A stretch of DNA of 64,000 nucleotides from Acetatifactor sp. (GCA_045538995.1 JAZQEK010000097.1:48482-112481); one strand, 5' to 3'. Shown: positions 14,899 to 34,535, numbered from the stretch's first letter. The notes: generated by a model from the sequence alone, not told the origin. Numbers and translations are program-made.

Positions 14899-16218
14899 TT
14901 ACATCAATGTCCGAATACACTCCTCCAAGCACTCAAAATAATTCTCAAAGGTTTTCCTACAGCATCCCGGATTGTCGATTTCAATACCATCCGCTCTTAA
15001 ACCAATCAGCGAGAAGCCCATGGCCATGCGGTGGTCATCGTATGTGTCTACCAAAGTAGGTTTCGGCGTGCCTGGGTAAATGGTGATAGTAGTGTCAGTT
15101 TCTTCGCAGCGGATGCCCATTTTGCCCAGTTCTGTGATGATGGCATTCATGCGGTTGCATTCCTGATAACGGATATGTCCGATGCCGCGAATGGTGGTAG
15201 GTGTATCCGCAAAGGGTGCCAATGCTGCCAGAGTGATGGCCTGGTCAGAGCAGGCAGACATATCTGCGTCTACACCGTGATATTTGCCTTCTGCCGGAGG
15301 CAGGAGTACCACACCGTCTGCTTCTTCCTTCAAAACAGCCCCCATTTGTTCTAAAATTTTCAAAAACTGTACATCTCCCTGCATGGAGTCAAAGGTAATG
15401 TGCTGTACCTTTACCGGTACACCTAATATCATACCCAGTGCATAGAAATATGCGGCACCGGAGGCATCCGGTTCAATTTGATAATCCAGTGCATTATAGT
15501 GTTGTCCTGATGGGATTATGTAAACCATTCCATTTTCAGAAACATTGGCTTTTACGCCGAATTGCTCCATCATTTTGCGAGTAATCTCGATGTAAGCCAT
15601 GCCATGGCTACCCTCTACCTGAATGTGCATGTCTTCCGGAGACAGGCAGGAAGCGATAAGCAAAGCACTTAAAAACTGGCTGCTGTGTTCGATATCTACG
15701 GAAATGTGGTTGGTACCGAAGCCGTGGCTCTTGAGGGTAAAAGGGAAATATCCCTCTACTCCTTCAAATTCTATTTCACATCCCAATTCCTGTAAGGAGG
15801 CAAGCAGGGGTGCCATAGGACGCTTACGCATTTGCTCAGAGGCATCCATATGGTAGGTGCCATTGGAAATGCCCAAATATGCCGCTAAGAAACGGGCAGC
15901 AGTTCCGGCACTTCCTACATACTGGGAGGCTTCCTTTTTGGGAACTGCGCCACCCAGACCGGAGACCTTTACCAGCTTGGCTGCTTCATCCACTTCTGTT
16001 TCAAAGCCCAAATCCTGTACACATTTCAGGAAGTGGCGGGAATCGTCGCTGAACAATACGCCTCGCAGTGTGGAGGTACCGTCTGCCAATGTGGCCAGCA
16101 GTAGAGCTCGATTGGTCAGGCTTTTGGAGCCGGGGACGGTTACTACCAGGGGATTAGTTGGAGTATTTTCACAGATTTTTGCATAAATATTCGATACTTT
16201 ATAGGTATTATTTTTCAT
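14899..16218 (-). CDS. aroA: 3-phosphoshikimate 1-carboxyvinyltransferase (EPSP synthase)
   Basis: PGSKSLTNR, GSAGTAARF, RPM, SSQFLSALL, IRYQECNR and DDHRMAM. Confidence 0.92.
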   Translation of the reverse strand: MKNNTYKVSNIYAKICENTPTNPLVVTVPGSKSLTNRALLLATLADGTSTLRGVLFSDDSRHFLKCVQDLGFETEVDEAAKLVKVSGLGGAVPKKEASQYVGSAGTAARFLAAYLGISNGTYHMDASEQMRKRPMAPLLASLQELGCEIEFEGVEGYFPFTLKSHGFGTNHISVDIEHSSQFLSALLIASCLSPEDMHIQVEGSHGMAYIEITRKMMEQFGVKANVSENGMVYIIPSGQHYNALDYQIEPDASGAAYFYALGMILGVPVKVQHITFDSMQGDVQFLKILEQMGAVLKEEADGVVLLPPAEGKYHGVDADMSACSDQAITLAALAPFADTPTTIRGIGHIRYQECNRMNAIITELGKMGIRCEETDTTITIYPGTPKPTLVDTYDDHRMAMGFSLIGLRADGIEIDNPGCCRKTFENYFECLEECIRTLM

Positions 16219-16346
16219 ACTTTTTCCTCTTCATATAACATGTGATTAAAGTATACTCAATTCTGAAACAAATGTCAAAAAAAAGAAGATTAAGGTAACT
16301 TAGAATAAGTAAAAATATCTTTTTCGAAGAGTGAGTACGTTTTATT

Positions 16347-16756
16347 TAATCTTAATATTTTTTTGTTTAGTCGGATTTAGTATATTTCATATTCAAAAGA
16401 GTGCGATAACACCCAATTTCCCTAGCATTTTTTCTGTTTGGTTGGGATATTTAAGCAAGCTGACACCAACTATTCTAGCTTTTTCCTCGTCTAGTTGGTA
16501 TTTCCTAACCGTCTCGTACCAACTGTTCTAGTTTTTTCCTTCGTTAGTTGGCATTTCCAAACAGCTGCATACCAACTGTTCCAGCTATTTCGTTATCTGG
16601 TTGGTATTTTCTAACAGTCAAATACCAACTAGTCTGGCTTTTTCATTGTCTGGTTGGTATTTCCCTGCAATCTCATACCAATTTTTCTTACATTTCCCAT
16701 ACCTGGTTGGTATTCCGCACTTTTTCAGTAAATAACACTTCCCAAACTCCCAATTT
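16347..16756 (+). repeat. Palindromic tandem array A (six 53-bp units, ACCAAC...GTTGGT type)
   Basis: Unit starts at 16412, 16465, 16518, 16571, 16624 and 16677. Inverted half-sites lie 28 bp later in every unit. One TAGTCGG at 16368. Confidence 0.85.
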
Positions 16757-16976
16757 GTTTCATATTACAAATTACATACATTGTGGCAATACAATTTCAA
16801 TAGGGAATAAACTTAGGTTTTAAATAAAAATAGGAATATAGAAAAGCAATTGTAAAAAATAGCAAGAAATGATTAGCATTTGACAAGAGTTAGAGAGTAA
16901 AGAAAGAGTTTTTACTTTAAAATATTTTTAGAATAGCAATAACTATAAGCGAAGGCGGATGGAGGATATTATAACA

Positions 16977-18110
16977 ATGGATAAGAAGAGCTATCGCAAT
17001 GTGTTTACGGAAATTGGAATCAGTGCTTCTGAGGTGGAGAAACGTTTGGAAGAGGTGAAGCAGTTTTACTTCTATGGTGGTGAAGATAAGCAGGTTTATT
17101 TTCCGGTAGGAGAGGACATGGCTTATATTATGGATACCGGTAATAATGATGCCAGAACGGAAGGTATGTCCTATGGCATGATGATTTGTGTACAGTTGAA
17201 TATGAAGGAGGAATTCGACCGTTTGTGGAAATGGGCGAAGACCTATATGTGGATGGAAGACGGCTATAACGAAGGTTATTTCGCATGGTCTTGTGCAACA
17301 GATGGTACGAAGAATGCAAATGGACCGGCACCGGATGGAGAAGAATTCTTCGCATTAGCATTGTTCTTTGCTTCTCACCGCTGGGGAGACGGAGAAGGTA
17401 TCTTCGAGTACTCTAAGCAGGCCAGAGATATTTTGAGTGCATGCTTACATAAAGGTCAGAATGGCAGAATAGGCACACCTATGTGGAATTTAGACAATCA
17501 TCAGATATTGTTTGTGCCGGGCATTGATTTCACAGATCCTTCTTACCACTTGCCTCATTTCTATGAGTTGTTTGCGCTGTGGGCAAACGAGGAAGATAGA
17601 GAATTTTGGAAACAGGCAGCAGAGGCCAGCCGTGATTATTTGGCAAAGGCTTGCCATCCTGTGACAGGTTTCAGTGCAGAGTATGCAGAATTTGATGGTA
17701 GTCCCATGAGCAGACCATTACCTTGGACAAAGGATAGACATGACTGGTTCTTTAGCGATTCTTATCGTACGGTAGCCAATATTGGTTTGGATTGTGAATG
17801 GTTTGGCATTGACAAGGGACATTTTGCAGCAGCAAAGAATATTCAGAAGTTCTTAATCGAGGATGCGAGAAAGGGAACTTATCATATTTATGAAGTGGAT
17901 GGCAGGCAGGCCGCAGATGTAGCATTGCATCCGGTAGCAATACCTGCAACGGTAGCACAGTCTGTTTTAGCCGGAGATACCGAGTATAGCAAGGAGTGGG
18001 TAGAAAGTTTCTGGAATATGCCTATGCGTACCGGAAAGTGGAGATATTACGATAACTGTTTGTACTTCTTTGCATTTTTGGCACTGAGCGGTAATTATAA
18101 GATGTGGTAA
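16977..18110 (+). CDS. GH8 reducing-end xylose-releasing exo-oligoxylanase (Rex-like)
   Basis: DARTEGMSYGM, FAWS, APDGEEFFA, TDPSYHLPHFY and SDSYRT. No signal peptide. GGAGG at 16961 favours ATG 16977. Confidence 0.85.
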   Translation: MDKKSYRNVFTEIGISASEVEKRLEEVKQFYFYGGEDKQVYFPVGEDMAYIMDTGNNDARTEGMSYGMMICVQLNMKEEFDRLWKWAKTYMWMEDGYNEGYFAWSCATDGTKNANGPAPDGEEFFALALFFASHRWGDGEGIFEYSKQARDILSACLHKGQNGRIGTPMWNLDNHQILFVPGIDFTDPSYHLPHFYELFALWANEEDREFWKQAAEASRDYLAKACHPVTGFSAEYAEFDGSPMSRPLPWTKDRHDWFFSDSYRTVANIGLDCEWFGIDKGHFAAAKNIQKFLIEDARKGTYHIYEVDGRQAADVALHPVAIPATVAQSVLAGDTEYSKEWVESFWNMPMRTGKWRYYDNCLYFFAFLALSGNYKMW

Positions 18111-31590: not shown

Positions 31591-33141
31591 ATGCTAAAAA
31601 CGAATCCCATATGTAAAGCAGATTTTCCGGATCCGGATGTGATACGTGTAGGAGATACTTATTATATGCTGTGTGCCACCATGCATTTCATGCCGGGTGG
31701 AGTGATACTGCGCTCTTACGATTTGAAGAATTGGGAGATTGCCGGTCATATGTTTGAGACCCTGGACAATACTCCGGAAGAAAGAATGCAGGGAGAACGT
31801 TGTAACTATGGTCGCGGTATGTGGGCAGGAAGTATTCGCTATGCAAATGATAAGTTTTATGTATGCTTTTCTGCACAGGAAACGGATACTACTTATATTT
31901 ATACTGCAGAAAGTGTGGAAGGCCCTTGGCAGGTTACTCGTCTGCCGGAGTACAGACATCATCCCAGCCTGTTGTTTGACGAGGACGGAAGAGTGTTTAT
32001 GGTTTCCGGTTTTCAACAGATATTGTTGCGGGAAATGTTGCCGGACTTGAGCGGATATCTGGAGAATGGTCTGAAGAGAACCCTGCTGGAAGCACTGCCG
32101 AGAGAAGAGGTCCAGGTTGGCTATGAAGGTGCCAGTTTGCAGAAAATCGGTGGAAAGTATTATTTATTTGCCATCTACTGGCCGAAGAAGGAACCTTCCA
32201 GAAAAACACAGCTTTGCTATCGCATGGATATGCTGGAGGGAGAACTGACCGGCGGTGAGGTGCTCTGTGATGATATGGATTATCATAATCAGGGAATTGC
32301 TCAAGGAGAGCTTATTGAGGCTCCGAACGGAAAGTGGTTCAGTATCATGTTACAGGACTATGGTGCGGTAGGACGTATACCGGTGTTGGTTCCGGTGACT
32401 TGGAAGGACGGAATGCCTGTGTTTGGAAGAAACGGCAAGGTGCCAAAAGATATTTCTGTGGTGAGCAGCCGTCCGTATTATCAGTATGAACCCTTGTATA
32501 CCTCAGATGATTTCCGGTATGTGCCGGAATGTGGAGAGCATCCACAGTTAAAGTGCCAATGGGAATGGAATCATATTCCGGACAGAAGGTTGTGGAGAAT
32601 TGCAGAGGATGGAGGGTATTGCATCAAAAATGGTAAAATCTGTTCTAATGTAGCCCATGCTGTAAATACCCTGACCCAACGCAGCATGTATCCTAAATGC
32701 GGGGCAGAAGTAACCATCGACGGTTCCGGGCTGAAGGACGGAGATGTGGCAGGTTTGTGTGCACTGCAGGGATGCTATAGTCTCATCGGCATTATGAAGG
32801 AGCATGGTTGCTACTATCTGGTGATTATCGGCAGATGTCTGACAGATGCTTCCCTATGGGATAGAGCACAGGATTATATGCCGGGTAAAATCGTGGAAAG
32901 AGTGAAGCTGACAGAGGCGGTGGCCCGTGTTCGTATGAACTTGAATTTCGAAGATATGCAGGATACGGCAGAGTTTTATTATCAGAGCGGAAACAGATGG
33001 AAAAAGCTGGGAGGTCCGCACAATCTCTACTTCAGACTGGACCACTTCGTGGGCTGTCGTATAGGACTTTTTAATTATGCCACCAGGGAAATCGGCGGAG
33101 AAGTGAAGTTTAAGGATTTCCGGTATGTTTATGAGGAGTAG
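31591..33141 (+). CDS. GH43 family protein, paralog of 23080-24666
   Basis: FPDPDVIRV, GMWA, YEGAS, QGELI and RLDHFVG. HHPS occurs where the paralog has HDCS. Confidence 0.85.
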   Translation: MLKTNPICKADFPDPDVIRVGDTYYMLCATMHFMPGGVILRSYDLKNWEIAGHMFETLDNTPEERMQGERCNYGRGMWAGSIRYANDKFYVCFSAQETDTTYIYTAESVEGPWQVTRLPEYRHHPSLLFDEDGRVFMVSGFQQILLREMLPDLSGYLENGLKRTLLEALPREEVQVGYEGASLQKIGGKYYLFAIYWPKKEPSRKTQLCYRMDMLEGELTGGEVLCDDMDYHNQGIAQGELIEAPNGKWFSIMLQDYGAVGRIPVLVPVTWKDGMPVFGRNGKVPKDISVVSSRPYYQYEPLYTSDDFRYVPECGEHPQLKCQWEWNHIPDRRLWRIAEDGGYCIKNGKICSNVAHAVNTLTQRSMYPKCGAEVTIDGSGLKDGDVAGLCALQGCYSLIGIMKEHGCYYLVIIGRCLTDASLWDRAQDYMPGKIVERVKLTEAVARVRMNLNFEDMQDTAEFYYQSGNRWKKLGGPHNLYFRLDHFVGCRIGLFNYATREIGGEVKFKDFRYVYEE

Positions 33142-33201
33142 CGATGCGTTGAGTTCGCAATTTTATATAAGATGTTAGCCGGGATGAACCGGTAAGGGAT
33201 G

Positions 33202-33229
33202 CCCCGGGCAGTGGAAGTGCTGCCCGGGG
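33202..33229 (+). terminator. GC-rich hairpin after the GH43/exporter operon
   Basis: ccccgggcag-tggaagtg-ctgcccgggg; the U-tract is weak. Confidence 0.55.
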
Positions 33230-33300
33230 TGTTGTGATGTAGAGAGAAATAGAAATAAGCTCTTTTTAGGAAAGTGTGTCCAGTGCATAGAGACCTTGAT

Positions 33301-33712
33301 AAATTGGGAGTTGTAGGGATGTTATTTCCGGAAAAGTGTGAATTACCAATTGGTCAGAAAAAGAGGTTAAAAAGTTGGTATGAGCTTGTTTGGAAATACC
33401 AACAGGACGAGGAAAAAAGCTAGAAAAATTGGGGGTATCGCACTTTTTTGAGTAAGAGATAGACTAACTCCGACTAAACAAGAAAATATTAAGATTAGTC
33501 GGGAATGATTGCACCTAAAAACCGACTAAAATGTTAAAGTATGGTATTAGTCGGGGGATAGAGCGCATGCATTCCCGACTATTTGGGAGAAAATGTCTGA
33601 TAGTCGGGAAAACATGATAAGTGATACCGACTAAAACCAATAGAAACAAATATAGTCGGTATCATGGATAAAATTCACCCGATGAAAACATGAACAAAAG
33701 TAACATAGTCGG
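33301..33712 (-). repeat. Palindromic tandem array B (two ACCAAC-type plus five CCGACTA/TAGTCGG units), inverted homolog of array A
   Basis: CCGACTA at 33470, 33522, 33575, 33627 and (CCGATGA) 33679. TAGTCGG at 33496, 33548, 33601, 33653 and 33706. The reverse complement of 33419-33497 matches 16347-16426. Confidence 0.85.
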
Positions 33713-33905
33713 GAAAACGGGATATATTTGCTAAAATCAGTATGTCAGCGTAACTGGGAGAGGAAATAGGACGAAATCATCCCTACAAAGCACTTCCGAA
33801 AAAGGAAATAAAGATATATAATAGTATTGTTCGTGTGAGGTTTTCGCATGGTTTAGTAACAAGTTAAAAAACTTGCTATACTGTAAAAAGGGGAGGATTA
33901 GAATT

Positions 33906-34535
33906 ATGGGGAAAAATAAGGTTTTGTTGATTGACATGTATGGCGTCATACTAAAAGAAAGTAAAGGCTATTTTATTCCGTATACATTTCAGCATTTTGA
34001 TGAGGCAGAGTATGACAGGTTAAAGAAAGCATTTAAAGAAGATAAATACTTTACCAAGGCACAGCTGGGAATGATATCGAATGATGAGTTTTTAAGATAT
34101 TTAGGATATTCTTCACCAAAGGATACCAAGGAAGATTATTTGAAGAATTATTTAACATTGGATGAGCAGTTTATGGATTTTGCGAAAAAATATAGCAAAG
34201 TCATGGGCTTTTGTCTGTTGTCAAATGATGTACTTGAATGGAGTGAGTTTTTGACGGAGTATTATCAATTGAATGGTTTTCTGAAAGAGAAAGTAGTGAG
34301 TGGAGAAGTACATATGCGAAAACCGGATGAAAACATATTTTTATATGCGATTGATAAATTAGGCTGTTCACCGGAGGATTGTATCTTTGTTGACAATAGT
34401 GTTAAGAATTTGCTGGTTGCAGAAAAACTGGGAATTCAAACTATTTTATTCAATCGTGATGGGGAAGAATATAGTGGAAGGGTTGTAAATGATTTCGTGG
34501 AATTGGGAGAGATGTTAGATAGTTTGATGTGTTGA
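33906..34535 (+). CDS. HAD family hydrolase (phosphatase-like)
   Basis: LLIDMYGV (motif I, second Asp absent), LSND, RKPDENIF and FVDNS. GGGGAGG RBS precedes 33906. Confidence 0.8.
   Translation: MGKNKVLLIDMYGVILKESKGYFIPYTFQHFDEAEYDRLKKAFKEDKYFTKAQLGMISNDEFLRYLGYSSPKDTKEDYLKNYLTLDEQFMDFAKKYSKVMGFCLLSNDVLEWSEFLTEYYQLNGFLKEKVVSGEVHMRKPDENIFLYAIDKLGCSPEDCIFVDNSVKNLLVAEKLGIQTILFNRDGEEYSGRVVNDFVELGEMLDSLMC

Follow-up and report, generated by a model that had tools for sequence, protein, structure and literature searches.

REP/BIME and BOX elements lie between cistrons or in 3' regions and are probably transcribed together with the neighboring genes; they can influence the processing or stability of mRNA or bind proteins of the host. 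REP/BIME (repetitive extragenic palindromes and bacterial interspersed mosaic elements) are known from enterobacteria and pseudomonads, and REPINs go together with RAYT transposases of the HUH/Y1 type. The MIRU/VNTR loci of mycobacteria are intergenic tandem repeats of about 50 bp, with size classes that include 46-53 bp; they reside in operons, are co-oriented with the genes, vary in number between strains, and contain small ORFs overlapping the stop and start codons of their neighbors. BOX elements (boxA-boxB(n)-boxC) from Streptococcus pneumoniae and S. suis are composed of terminal modules surrounding tandem internal modules, the number of which varies between strains (PMC3049150). The Lachnospiraceae are among the most abundant commensals of the gut and their intergenic repeats are essentially uncharacterised. 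We describe an array of alternating CCGACTA and TAGTCGG motifs from this group which, with a probability of about three in four, is a copy of an interspersed palindromic-unit repeat rather than a guide array; what the motifs, or arms, do at the molecular level is far less certain than this classification. The family to which the array belongs is non-coding, chromosomal, multi-copy, and intergenic and is encountered in Lachnospiraceae and a few other Clostridia. Full-text literature searches retrieved no description of this repeat family, which seems not to have been described.

Within the window, i.e., the whole stretch of 64 kb that was analysed, CCGACTA is present 14 times when both strands are counted, whereas dinucleotide-preserving shuffles contain 3.4 sites on average and 7 at most, and 14 or more sites were reached in 0 of 100 shuffles. 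Nine of these 14 sites fall into positions 33470-33712, where the strands alternate strictly every 26-27 bp, with exact arms at 33470, 33522, 33575, and 33627 on the plus strand and at 33496, 33548, 33601, 33653, and 33706 on the minus strand. A degenerate plus-strand arm, CCGATGA, at 33679 is the L arm of unit 5, so that the array at 33470-33712 (+) reads as five palindromic units with a G:C core, CCGACTA-N19-TAGTCGG, joined by linkers of 19-20 nt. The original prediction of an alternating array with one degenerate motif therefore describes a real feature far above chance, and its fixed geometry, with same-strand periods of 52, 53, 52, and 52 bp, is exactly as claimed. As the 19-20-nt spacers have nearly no mutual similarity, Tandem Repeats Finder (TRF) makes no call at 33470-33712.

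The array is situated in a gap of 764 bp between genes for a GH43 glycosidase (31591-33141, +) and a HAD-family hydrolase (33906-34535, +), which bears out the earlier statement that no effector gene is adjacent. No ORF crosses 33470-33712, and Rfam gives nothing at gathering score in the window and nothing even at E<5 in 33100-33950. Exact-protein look-up yielded no record for the HAD and CrtO-like neighbor proteins. A GC-rich hairpin, CCCCGGGCAG-N8-CTGCCCGGGG, is located at 33202-33229, 60 nt past the GH43 stop codon; it is terminator-like, but the T tract behind it is weak. Since this hairpin separates the element from the upstream gene, this copy is not necessarily co-transcribed. Reading CCGACTA as a sigma-28 or ECF promoter was rejected, as spacing and sequence, judged by eye, do not fit. 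That the array is not CRISPR-like had also been recognised correctly, since conservation is limited to 7-9 nt and each copy is inverted relative to the one before. A CRISPR array would be expected to have direct repeats of 23-55 bp that stay identical from end to end, unique acquired spacers that often match mobile elements, and linked cas genes or a leader; all of these are lacking here, the neighbors being GH43 and HAD genes and, across loci, members of 150 unrelated Pfam families.

The array forms part of a larger composite element. On the left, similarity to other copies has a sharp edge at a terminal inverted repeat, tAAATTGGGAGTTGTAGGGATG (33297-33321, +), and metagenome contigs of other copies part from the window just before 33296/33297. 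This left repeat is complementary to 33778-33788, and similarity to other copies ends at about 33788. At 33778-33788 (+), complementarity and contig ends define what is left of the right terminal inverted repeat, an 11-bp stretch reading CATCCCTACAA. Loose contig ends at 33788/33789 go on as CTCCCAATTTG, and other copies extend the right repeat as CTCCCAATTT (to CATCCCTACAACTCCCAATTT), from which it follows that the window copy is truncated at 33788. Between the left terminus and the array, two units with an A:T core and GTTGGTAT/ATACCAAC arms occupy 33346-33432 (+), the arms being CCAATTG at 33346, AAGTTGG at 33372, CCAACAG at 33399, and AAATTGG at 33426, spaced by 26-27 bp. When rotated, such a unit, previously noted as ACCAAC-type, reads CCAACTA-N20-TAGTTGG-N19, i.e., a CCGACTA unit in which G:C has been replaced by A:T. 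Between the array and the right terminus, a non-periodic tail (33713-33777, +) is common to paralogous copies, as alignment with the loci L005, L034, and L002 reveals.

A second composite copy, inverted and formerly listed as Array A, is recognised from sequence, TRF, and motif sites at 16340-16757 (-), where it occupies the divergent gap between genes at 14899-16218 (-) and 16959-18110 (+). It consists of the terminal repeat (16743-16756), about six 53-bp A:T-core units (GTTGGTAT/ATACCAAC), the junction, and a single CCGACTA half-unit at 16368-16374 (-), beyond which it is truncated. TRF reports 16422-16688 with a period of 53 and 4.2-4.6 copies. The proposal that both motif types belong to one composite element holds, since they are joined in this second copy and in paralogous copies as well; in the paralogs L005 and L034 there are more A:T-core units, with a period of 53-54.

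A terminal 14-mer, AAATTGGGAKTTGT, flanks copies in Acetatifactor and Roseburia genomes, in plus orientation on the left and minus orientation on the right, and delimits copies in four genomes or more. Only about 12 of 80 loci contain this 14-mer, and a closing-stem or terminal-inverted-repeat test across the family revealed no enrichment of flanking inverted repeats (7.68 observed vs. 7.73 in controls). On a low-coverage contig with an identical GH43 gene (L125:3020-3226), the sequence departs from the window right after the left terminal repeat and continues as a pyrimidine-rich stretch with motifs of the CCAGTCT/CCAGACT type. This contig may be an assembly chimera between copies, or it may represent another cargo or element with the same end.

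Copies elsewhere were sought with the three-arm pattern CCGACTA-N19/20-TAGTCGG-N19/20-CCGACTA in one genome per prokaryotic species, a scan for which we estimate about one chance match. It retrieved 81 stretches, nearly all from metagenome-assembled genomes of Lachnospiraceae (Acetatifactor, Roseburia, Eubacterium, and unnamed genera). Under this strict criterion up to about 15 loci are encountered in one draft genome, all of them intergenic. Many matches are situated at contig ends, which indicates that these arrays break metagenome assemblies. They could also be taken wrongly for CRISPR-like or regulatory arrays. Contigs from gut metagenomes cover 33270-33805 at 4-11 times the depth of the flanks. 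One stretch from Alicyclobacillus ferrooxydans (L021:7052-7853) is a 135-bp tandem repeat rich in TTAAGTCGG-N5-CCGACTAAG and TTAAGTCGCTCCGAGCGACTTAA palindromes; although it shares the core letters, its architecture of short-loop hairpins and its different phylum-level host set it apart, and it probably represents an unrelated or very distant family.

Comparison of copies clarifies how the spacers are inherited. A sister genome contains the ortholog of the window locus (L045), with 93% identity over 7.5 kb, and at two other loci of the same sister genome (L005 and L034) there are copies with 85-87% identity to 33370-33788, in which arms and spacers are alike; the copy L002 has an extra unit. 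In one Roseburia genome, copies are 98-100% identical and their flanks are unrelated. Different loci within one genome have arrays that are 70-80% alike, and the arrays L071, L041, and L069 are near-perfect 53- or 106-bp tandem repeats with spacers unrelated to those of the window. Because paralogs carry the same spacers, these have been inherited together with the element and are unique only within this array. The spacers had been called unique, which is true of their dissimilarity inside the array and fails for related genomes, where other copies carry these spacers too. Divergence between paralogs amounts to 3.8% at arm positions and 12.5% in spacers (Fisher p = 2e-4).

The number of units changes between strains. 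A joint that connects 33599 directly to 33705 occurs in three metagenome runs, and one of the contigs runs on into the unique downstream flank. Similarly, loci L122, L123, and L124, which encode an identical GH43 protein, are without exactly 33600-33704, and L124 is also without 33415-33503. The two-unit segment of 105 bp at 33600-33704 (+) is thus missing from the same locus in other strains of the species and unit number is polymorphic, so that these arrays could serve as strain markers of the VNTR type. In addition, arrays within one genome are more alike than arrays at the same locus in different species, which implies concerted evolution.

The unit itself is well defined. A logo of 537 arms gives the consensus cCCGACTAa and tTAGTCGGg, and the 53-bp unit can be written as cCCNACTAa-N17-tTAGTN'GGg plus a linker of about 19 nt, units following each other head to tail. 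Its palindromic part has inverted arms of 8-9 nt, 26-27 bp apart, and a non-palindromic interior of 17-19 nt. In the sense-oriented logo, AAA stands at the center of the interior, with 87% A at each of the three positions, and within the linker that follows the R arm no position is fixed. Spacing from L to R arm is 26 bp in 134 cases and 27 bp in 36, and from R to L arm 27 bp in 115 cases and 26 bp in 45. Arms of the same type are 53 bp apart in 98 cases and 52 or 54 bp apart in 11 cases each, amounting to a tolerance of ±1 bp. Over all loci, TRF finds a period of 53 in 44 arrays, by far the commonest value, 54 in 8, and 106 in 13. Five metagenome contigs (L082, L099, L104, L105, and L114) harbor arrays with a T:A core (CCTACTAAAA...TTTAGTAGG). 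In such T:A-core arrays the interior remains at 26-27 bp while linkers measure 36-41 nt (period 90-95), which suggests that the palindromic unit is more constrained than the linker. Phased A-tract curvature was considered and rejected, the central AAA alone being strong.

Spacer sequences differ between species, and one of their strands contains 65-80% purine. In 34 of 39 co-directional flanking gene pairs this purine-rich strand is the sense strand, and in 57 of 64 cases it matches the local GC skew, gene sense and leading strand being confounded and inseparable as the cause of the orientation bias. No Hfq-type (ARN)n pattern or 3-nt periodicity was detected in the spacers; they show only a small ARN excess that comes from A runs.

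Metagenomes were scanned with the third base left free (TAGTNGG-N19/20-CCNACTA-N19/20-TAGTNGG). Among the 40 stretches obtained, arrays with all four complementary cores (G:C, A:T, T:A, and C:G) are present, and inner pairs are Watson-Crick in 47 of 58. For 111 distinct units, pair 5-33 is GC in 71, UA in 11, AU in 7, and GU in 5, and the flanking pair 2-36 is CG in 48, UG in 19, AU in 10, and UA in 4. The covariation score of these 111 units is 0.171, as compared with 0.116 in shuffles, and was reached by 0 of 500 shuffles. Core variants and covariation together indicate that complementarity between the arms of a unit is maintained, with hardly any variation at six or seven arm positions. The evidence for complementarity sits mostly between arrays and not within them: in G:C-type arrays single-arm changes are mostly uncompensated (L5/R1 changes are compensated in only 2 of 33), and unit-level covariation within G-type arrays is absent or weak. 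One stretch, L121:4339-4668, has mixed G-core and T-core arms, and its mismatched units (CCGACTA...TGGTAGG) are duplicated, constituting an exception to complementarity. The complementarity could just as well result from a palindromic protein site that comes in variant specificities, i.e., one site in both orientations, or stem from a template-switch mutational process, the so-called quasi-palindrome correction. The excess of G·U over A·C mismatches on the purine-rich strand (189 vs. 111) was discarded as evidence, since it equals the prediction from composition; wobble asymmetry between strands is significant only when composition-biased edge positions are included.

No gene is consistently linked to the arrays. 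Clustering of 848 flanking ORFs and Pfam scans, in line with the suggested search for a linked gene, yielded housekeeping genes only. The 123 nearest flanking ORFs match 150 Pfam families, and the 25 families matched by at least two of these ORFs include no transposase or integrase family. A crude motif regex for RAYT/HUH/Y1 transposases over about 900 kb of locus flanks had no match, no transposase was seen beside the terminal motif in the examined loci, and no target-site duplication, empty site, or parent insertion sequence with matching ends was found for the repeat. GNAT acetyltransferases are the commonest neighbors, in mild excess (9 of the 123 nearest ORFs in the flanks of L001-L081), which may only mean that small accessory genes lie in long intergenic regions. 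The ±1-bp lattice is compatible with a protein-bound array, as in the earlier idea of a phased operator or centromere-like site. However, the lack of a linked partner gene, the many chromosomal copies, and the intergenic setting argue against a plasmid-type centromere or an operator of one operon. A plasmid or phage iteron or centromere of the parC/parS type was likewise rejected, as there is no rep or par neighbor, the context is housekeeping, and plasmid and phage records contain no match.

One locus has kept its array in diverged species. In each of seven species (GTDB representatives), an array takes up all of the space between comEC and the gene that follows; on the gene-sense strand it extends from a few nt past the stop codon to the next ribosome-binding site. 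The protein flanking this array is only 54-62% identical between the seven species, and the spacers are unrelated between species and homogenised inside each array. The gene downstream of the comEC array is conserved, encodes 264-279 amino acids, and has no Pfam match (L001, L014, L017, L042, L044, and L077); the order comEC, array, and this gene is found in six species, with holA next in several. Near-invariant arms, the ±1-bp lattice, four cores, and retention at one locus across genera imply that a specific molecular partner should exist, and if it were found, the four core variants would provide a natural specificity series.

Taken together, whole elements including their spacers have been copied to new intergenic sites, with AAATTGGGAKTTGT as terminal inverted repeats in the species group of the window; arrays gain or lose one or two units per step between strains; they undergo concerted evolution within genomes, as species-specific REP families do; and the arms and the 26/27-bp lattice persist even though spacers are fully replaced. 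Unit number might be altered by unequal recombination or replication slippage, and dispersal might depend on an unlinked trans-acting enzyme, either a transposase or a RAYT-like protein. Within a unit, the arms would have to stay complementary to each other. They might do so because they pair as a hairpin in single-stranded nucleic acid, the purine-rich strand being the gene-sense and G-rich one, or because they are one site read both ways by a sequence-specific protein. The best reading seems to be that the arms pair or that a putative trans-acting factor recognises them, and RNA hairpins, single-stranded DNA hairpins at the fork, and double-stranded protein sites are sub-models of roughly equal standing.

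Phased double-stranded DNA sites of 9 bp per arm for a conserved host protein that structures the nucleoid, acts as a roadblock, or is partition-like constitute a serious minority possibility. Sites of the same orientation would recur every 53 bp, that is, every five helical turns, and the protein array would be the function. Such sites would explain why both spacings hold to ±1 bp across genera despite unrelated spacers, why the arm sequence is nearly invariant, and why single-arm changes go uncompensated, and they would fit the W/A-tract at the dyad center and the retention of arrays at one orthologous locus in seven species. However, the four cores and the covarying flanking pair demand either several specificities or a base that is not contacted, and an uncontacted base would give the arms no reason to match. 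G-type and A-type arrays are neighbors within a single element, the marked asymmetry between the strands of the spacers is left unexplained, one lineage has a linker of 36-41 nt while its interior stays at 27, and neither flanking ORFs nor Pfam offer a linked candidate protein.

As an equally serious minority possibility, the arrays may instead act as structured RNA, being transcribed with their neighbors and folding into successive hairpins, each with a 9-bp stem and an A-rich loop of 15-17 nt, that affect the mRNA, for example in its processing, by blocking exonucleases, or by acting as a sponge for proteins. In co-directional contexts, the strand that is rich in purine and poor in C is indeed mostly the gene-sense one, arrays begin a few nt past stop codons and end at the next ribosome-binding site, complementarity is maintained through G:C, A:U, U:A, and C:G pairs, and predicted RNA folding energies lie well below those of shuffles (z of -8 and -6). 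These points are offset by the lack of any Rfam match even at E<5, by a wobble asymmetry no greater than composition gives, by the confounding of sense orientation with the leading strand, and by the position of the window copy behind a terminator-like hairpin. Also, the predicted RNA ensemble is degenerate, as any L arm can pair with any R arm. The sequencing runs in which the element was encountered are of DNA type or unlabelled.

In a more specific proposal, which we regard as doubtful, the arrays would be functional, and a putative conserved protein or ribonucleoprotein of the Lachnospiraceae would read hairpin-forming CCNACTAA/TTAGTN'GG units on one strand. Pairing would then be needed at the variable arm positions and sequence at the invariant ones, and a nucleoprotein with the 53-nt period of the lattice would assemble either on intercistronic RNA or on the lagging-strand template while single-stranded. 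If this is true, the arrays would represent a repeat system of a new kind, embedded in operons and regulatory or chromosome-organising in function, in a dominant group of gut bacteria.

It is unlikely that the family is a selfish or neutral minisatellite with no host or protein function, in which quasi-palindrome correction and homogenisation alone keep the arms complementary. Concerted evolution within genomes, unstable unit number, the lack of a linked gene, and the lack of a unit-level compensatory pattern would all agree with this. Correction, however, preserves complementarity and not sequence, so that a near-invariant CC-N-ACTA across many genera, ±1-bp spacing, and the AAA center are not predicted, and the retention of an array at the comEC locus in seven diverged species is also at odds with neutrality. 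Finally, an adaptive guide or spacer array, whose variable 19-20-nt segments would be acquired and used as guides by an unlinked effector, is very improbable, because it matches only in general form (short conserved motifs, fixed geometry, and dissimilar spacers in this array), whereas spacers are shared by paralogous copies at 85-87% identity or are identical unit to unit in many other arrays, their composition is biased (purine-rich with an AAA center) unlike captured sequence, viral contigs are without the array pattern and phage and plasmid records without a match to the element, strain differences are internal two-unit deletions and not additions at one end, and no linked effector gene is found.

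The preferred reading, an interspersed palindromic-unit repeat, invites comparison with several known systems. CRISPR arrays and type III toxin-antitoxin (ToxI-type) RNA repeat arrays resemble it in that short repeats recur at regular distances, separated by stretches of constant length, but here no cas or toxN-like neighbors are present, the repeats of 7-9 nt alternate in orientation, and the spacers are inherited or identical. Miniature inverted-repeat transposable elements (MITEs) resemble the subfamily of the window, which is small and non-coding with sharp termini, inverted repeats of 14-21 bp, and near-identical dispersed copies; in contrast, most arrays of the family are without terminal inverted repeats. 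Like MIRUs, the arrays are intergenic, operon-embedded, co-oriented tandem repeats of variable number. They do not carry MIRU-like ORFs, since 53 is not a multiple of 3 and TAA or TAG occurs in every arm, so that all frames are closed. As in REP/BIME, there are many extragenic copies per genome, palindromic units are clustered in alternating orientation, no mobility gene is adjacent, the sites lie past stop codons and between cistrons, and sequences are specific to the species or genome while loci are conserved (in part, PMC3184786). A REP unit is an imperfect palindrome of 20-40 nt with a short loop and a GTAG/CT cleavage motif. An imperfect palindrome of that size with a stable stem-loop is not what is found here: the repeat has only complementary arms of 8-9 nt around a non-palindromic interior of 17-19 nt, its linker has no conserved motif, and its period is a strict 53 bp. 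With BOX elements the family shares a composite, intergenic, and multi-copy nature, inverted terminal modules, and the combination of module types (PMC3049150), terminal modules around a variable core being found only in the subfamily with termini. It differs from BOX in that boxB has 45 bp in place of the 53-bp unit and is not built on a conserved inverted pair of 8-mers. Moreover, arrays of the present family are often without a terminal module, and conservation across genera is confined to the arms and the lattice, the remainder of the unit being free. By analogy, the palindromic units of REP/BIME and the BOX elements may provide the nearest functional models for the arrays of the Lachnospiraceae.
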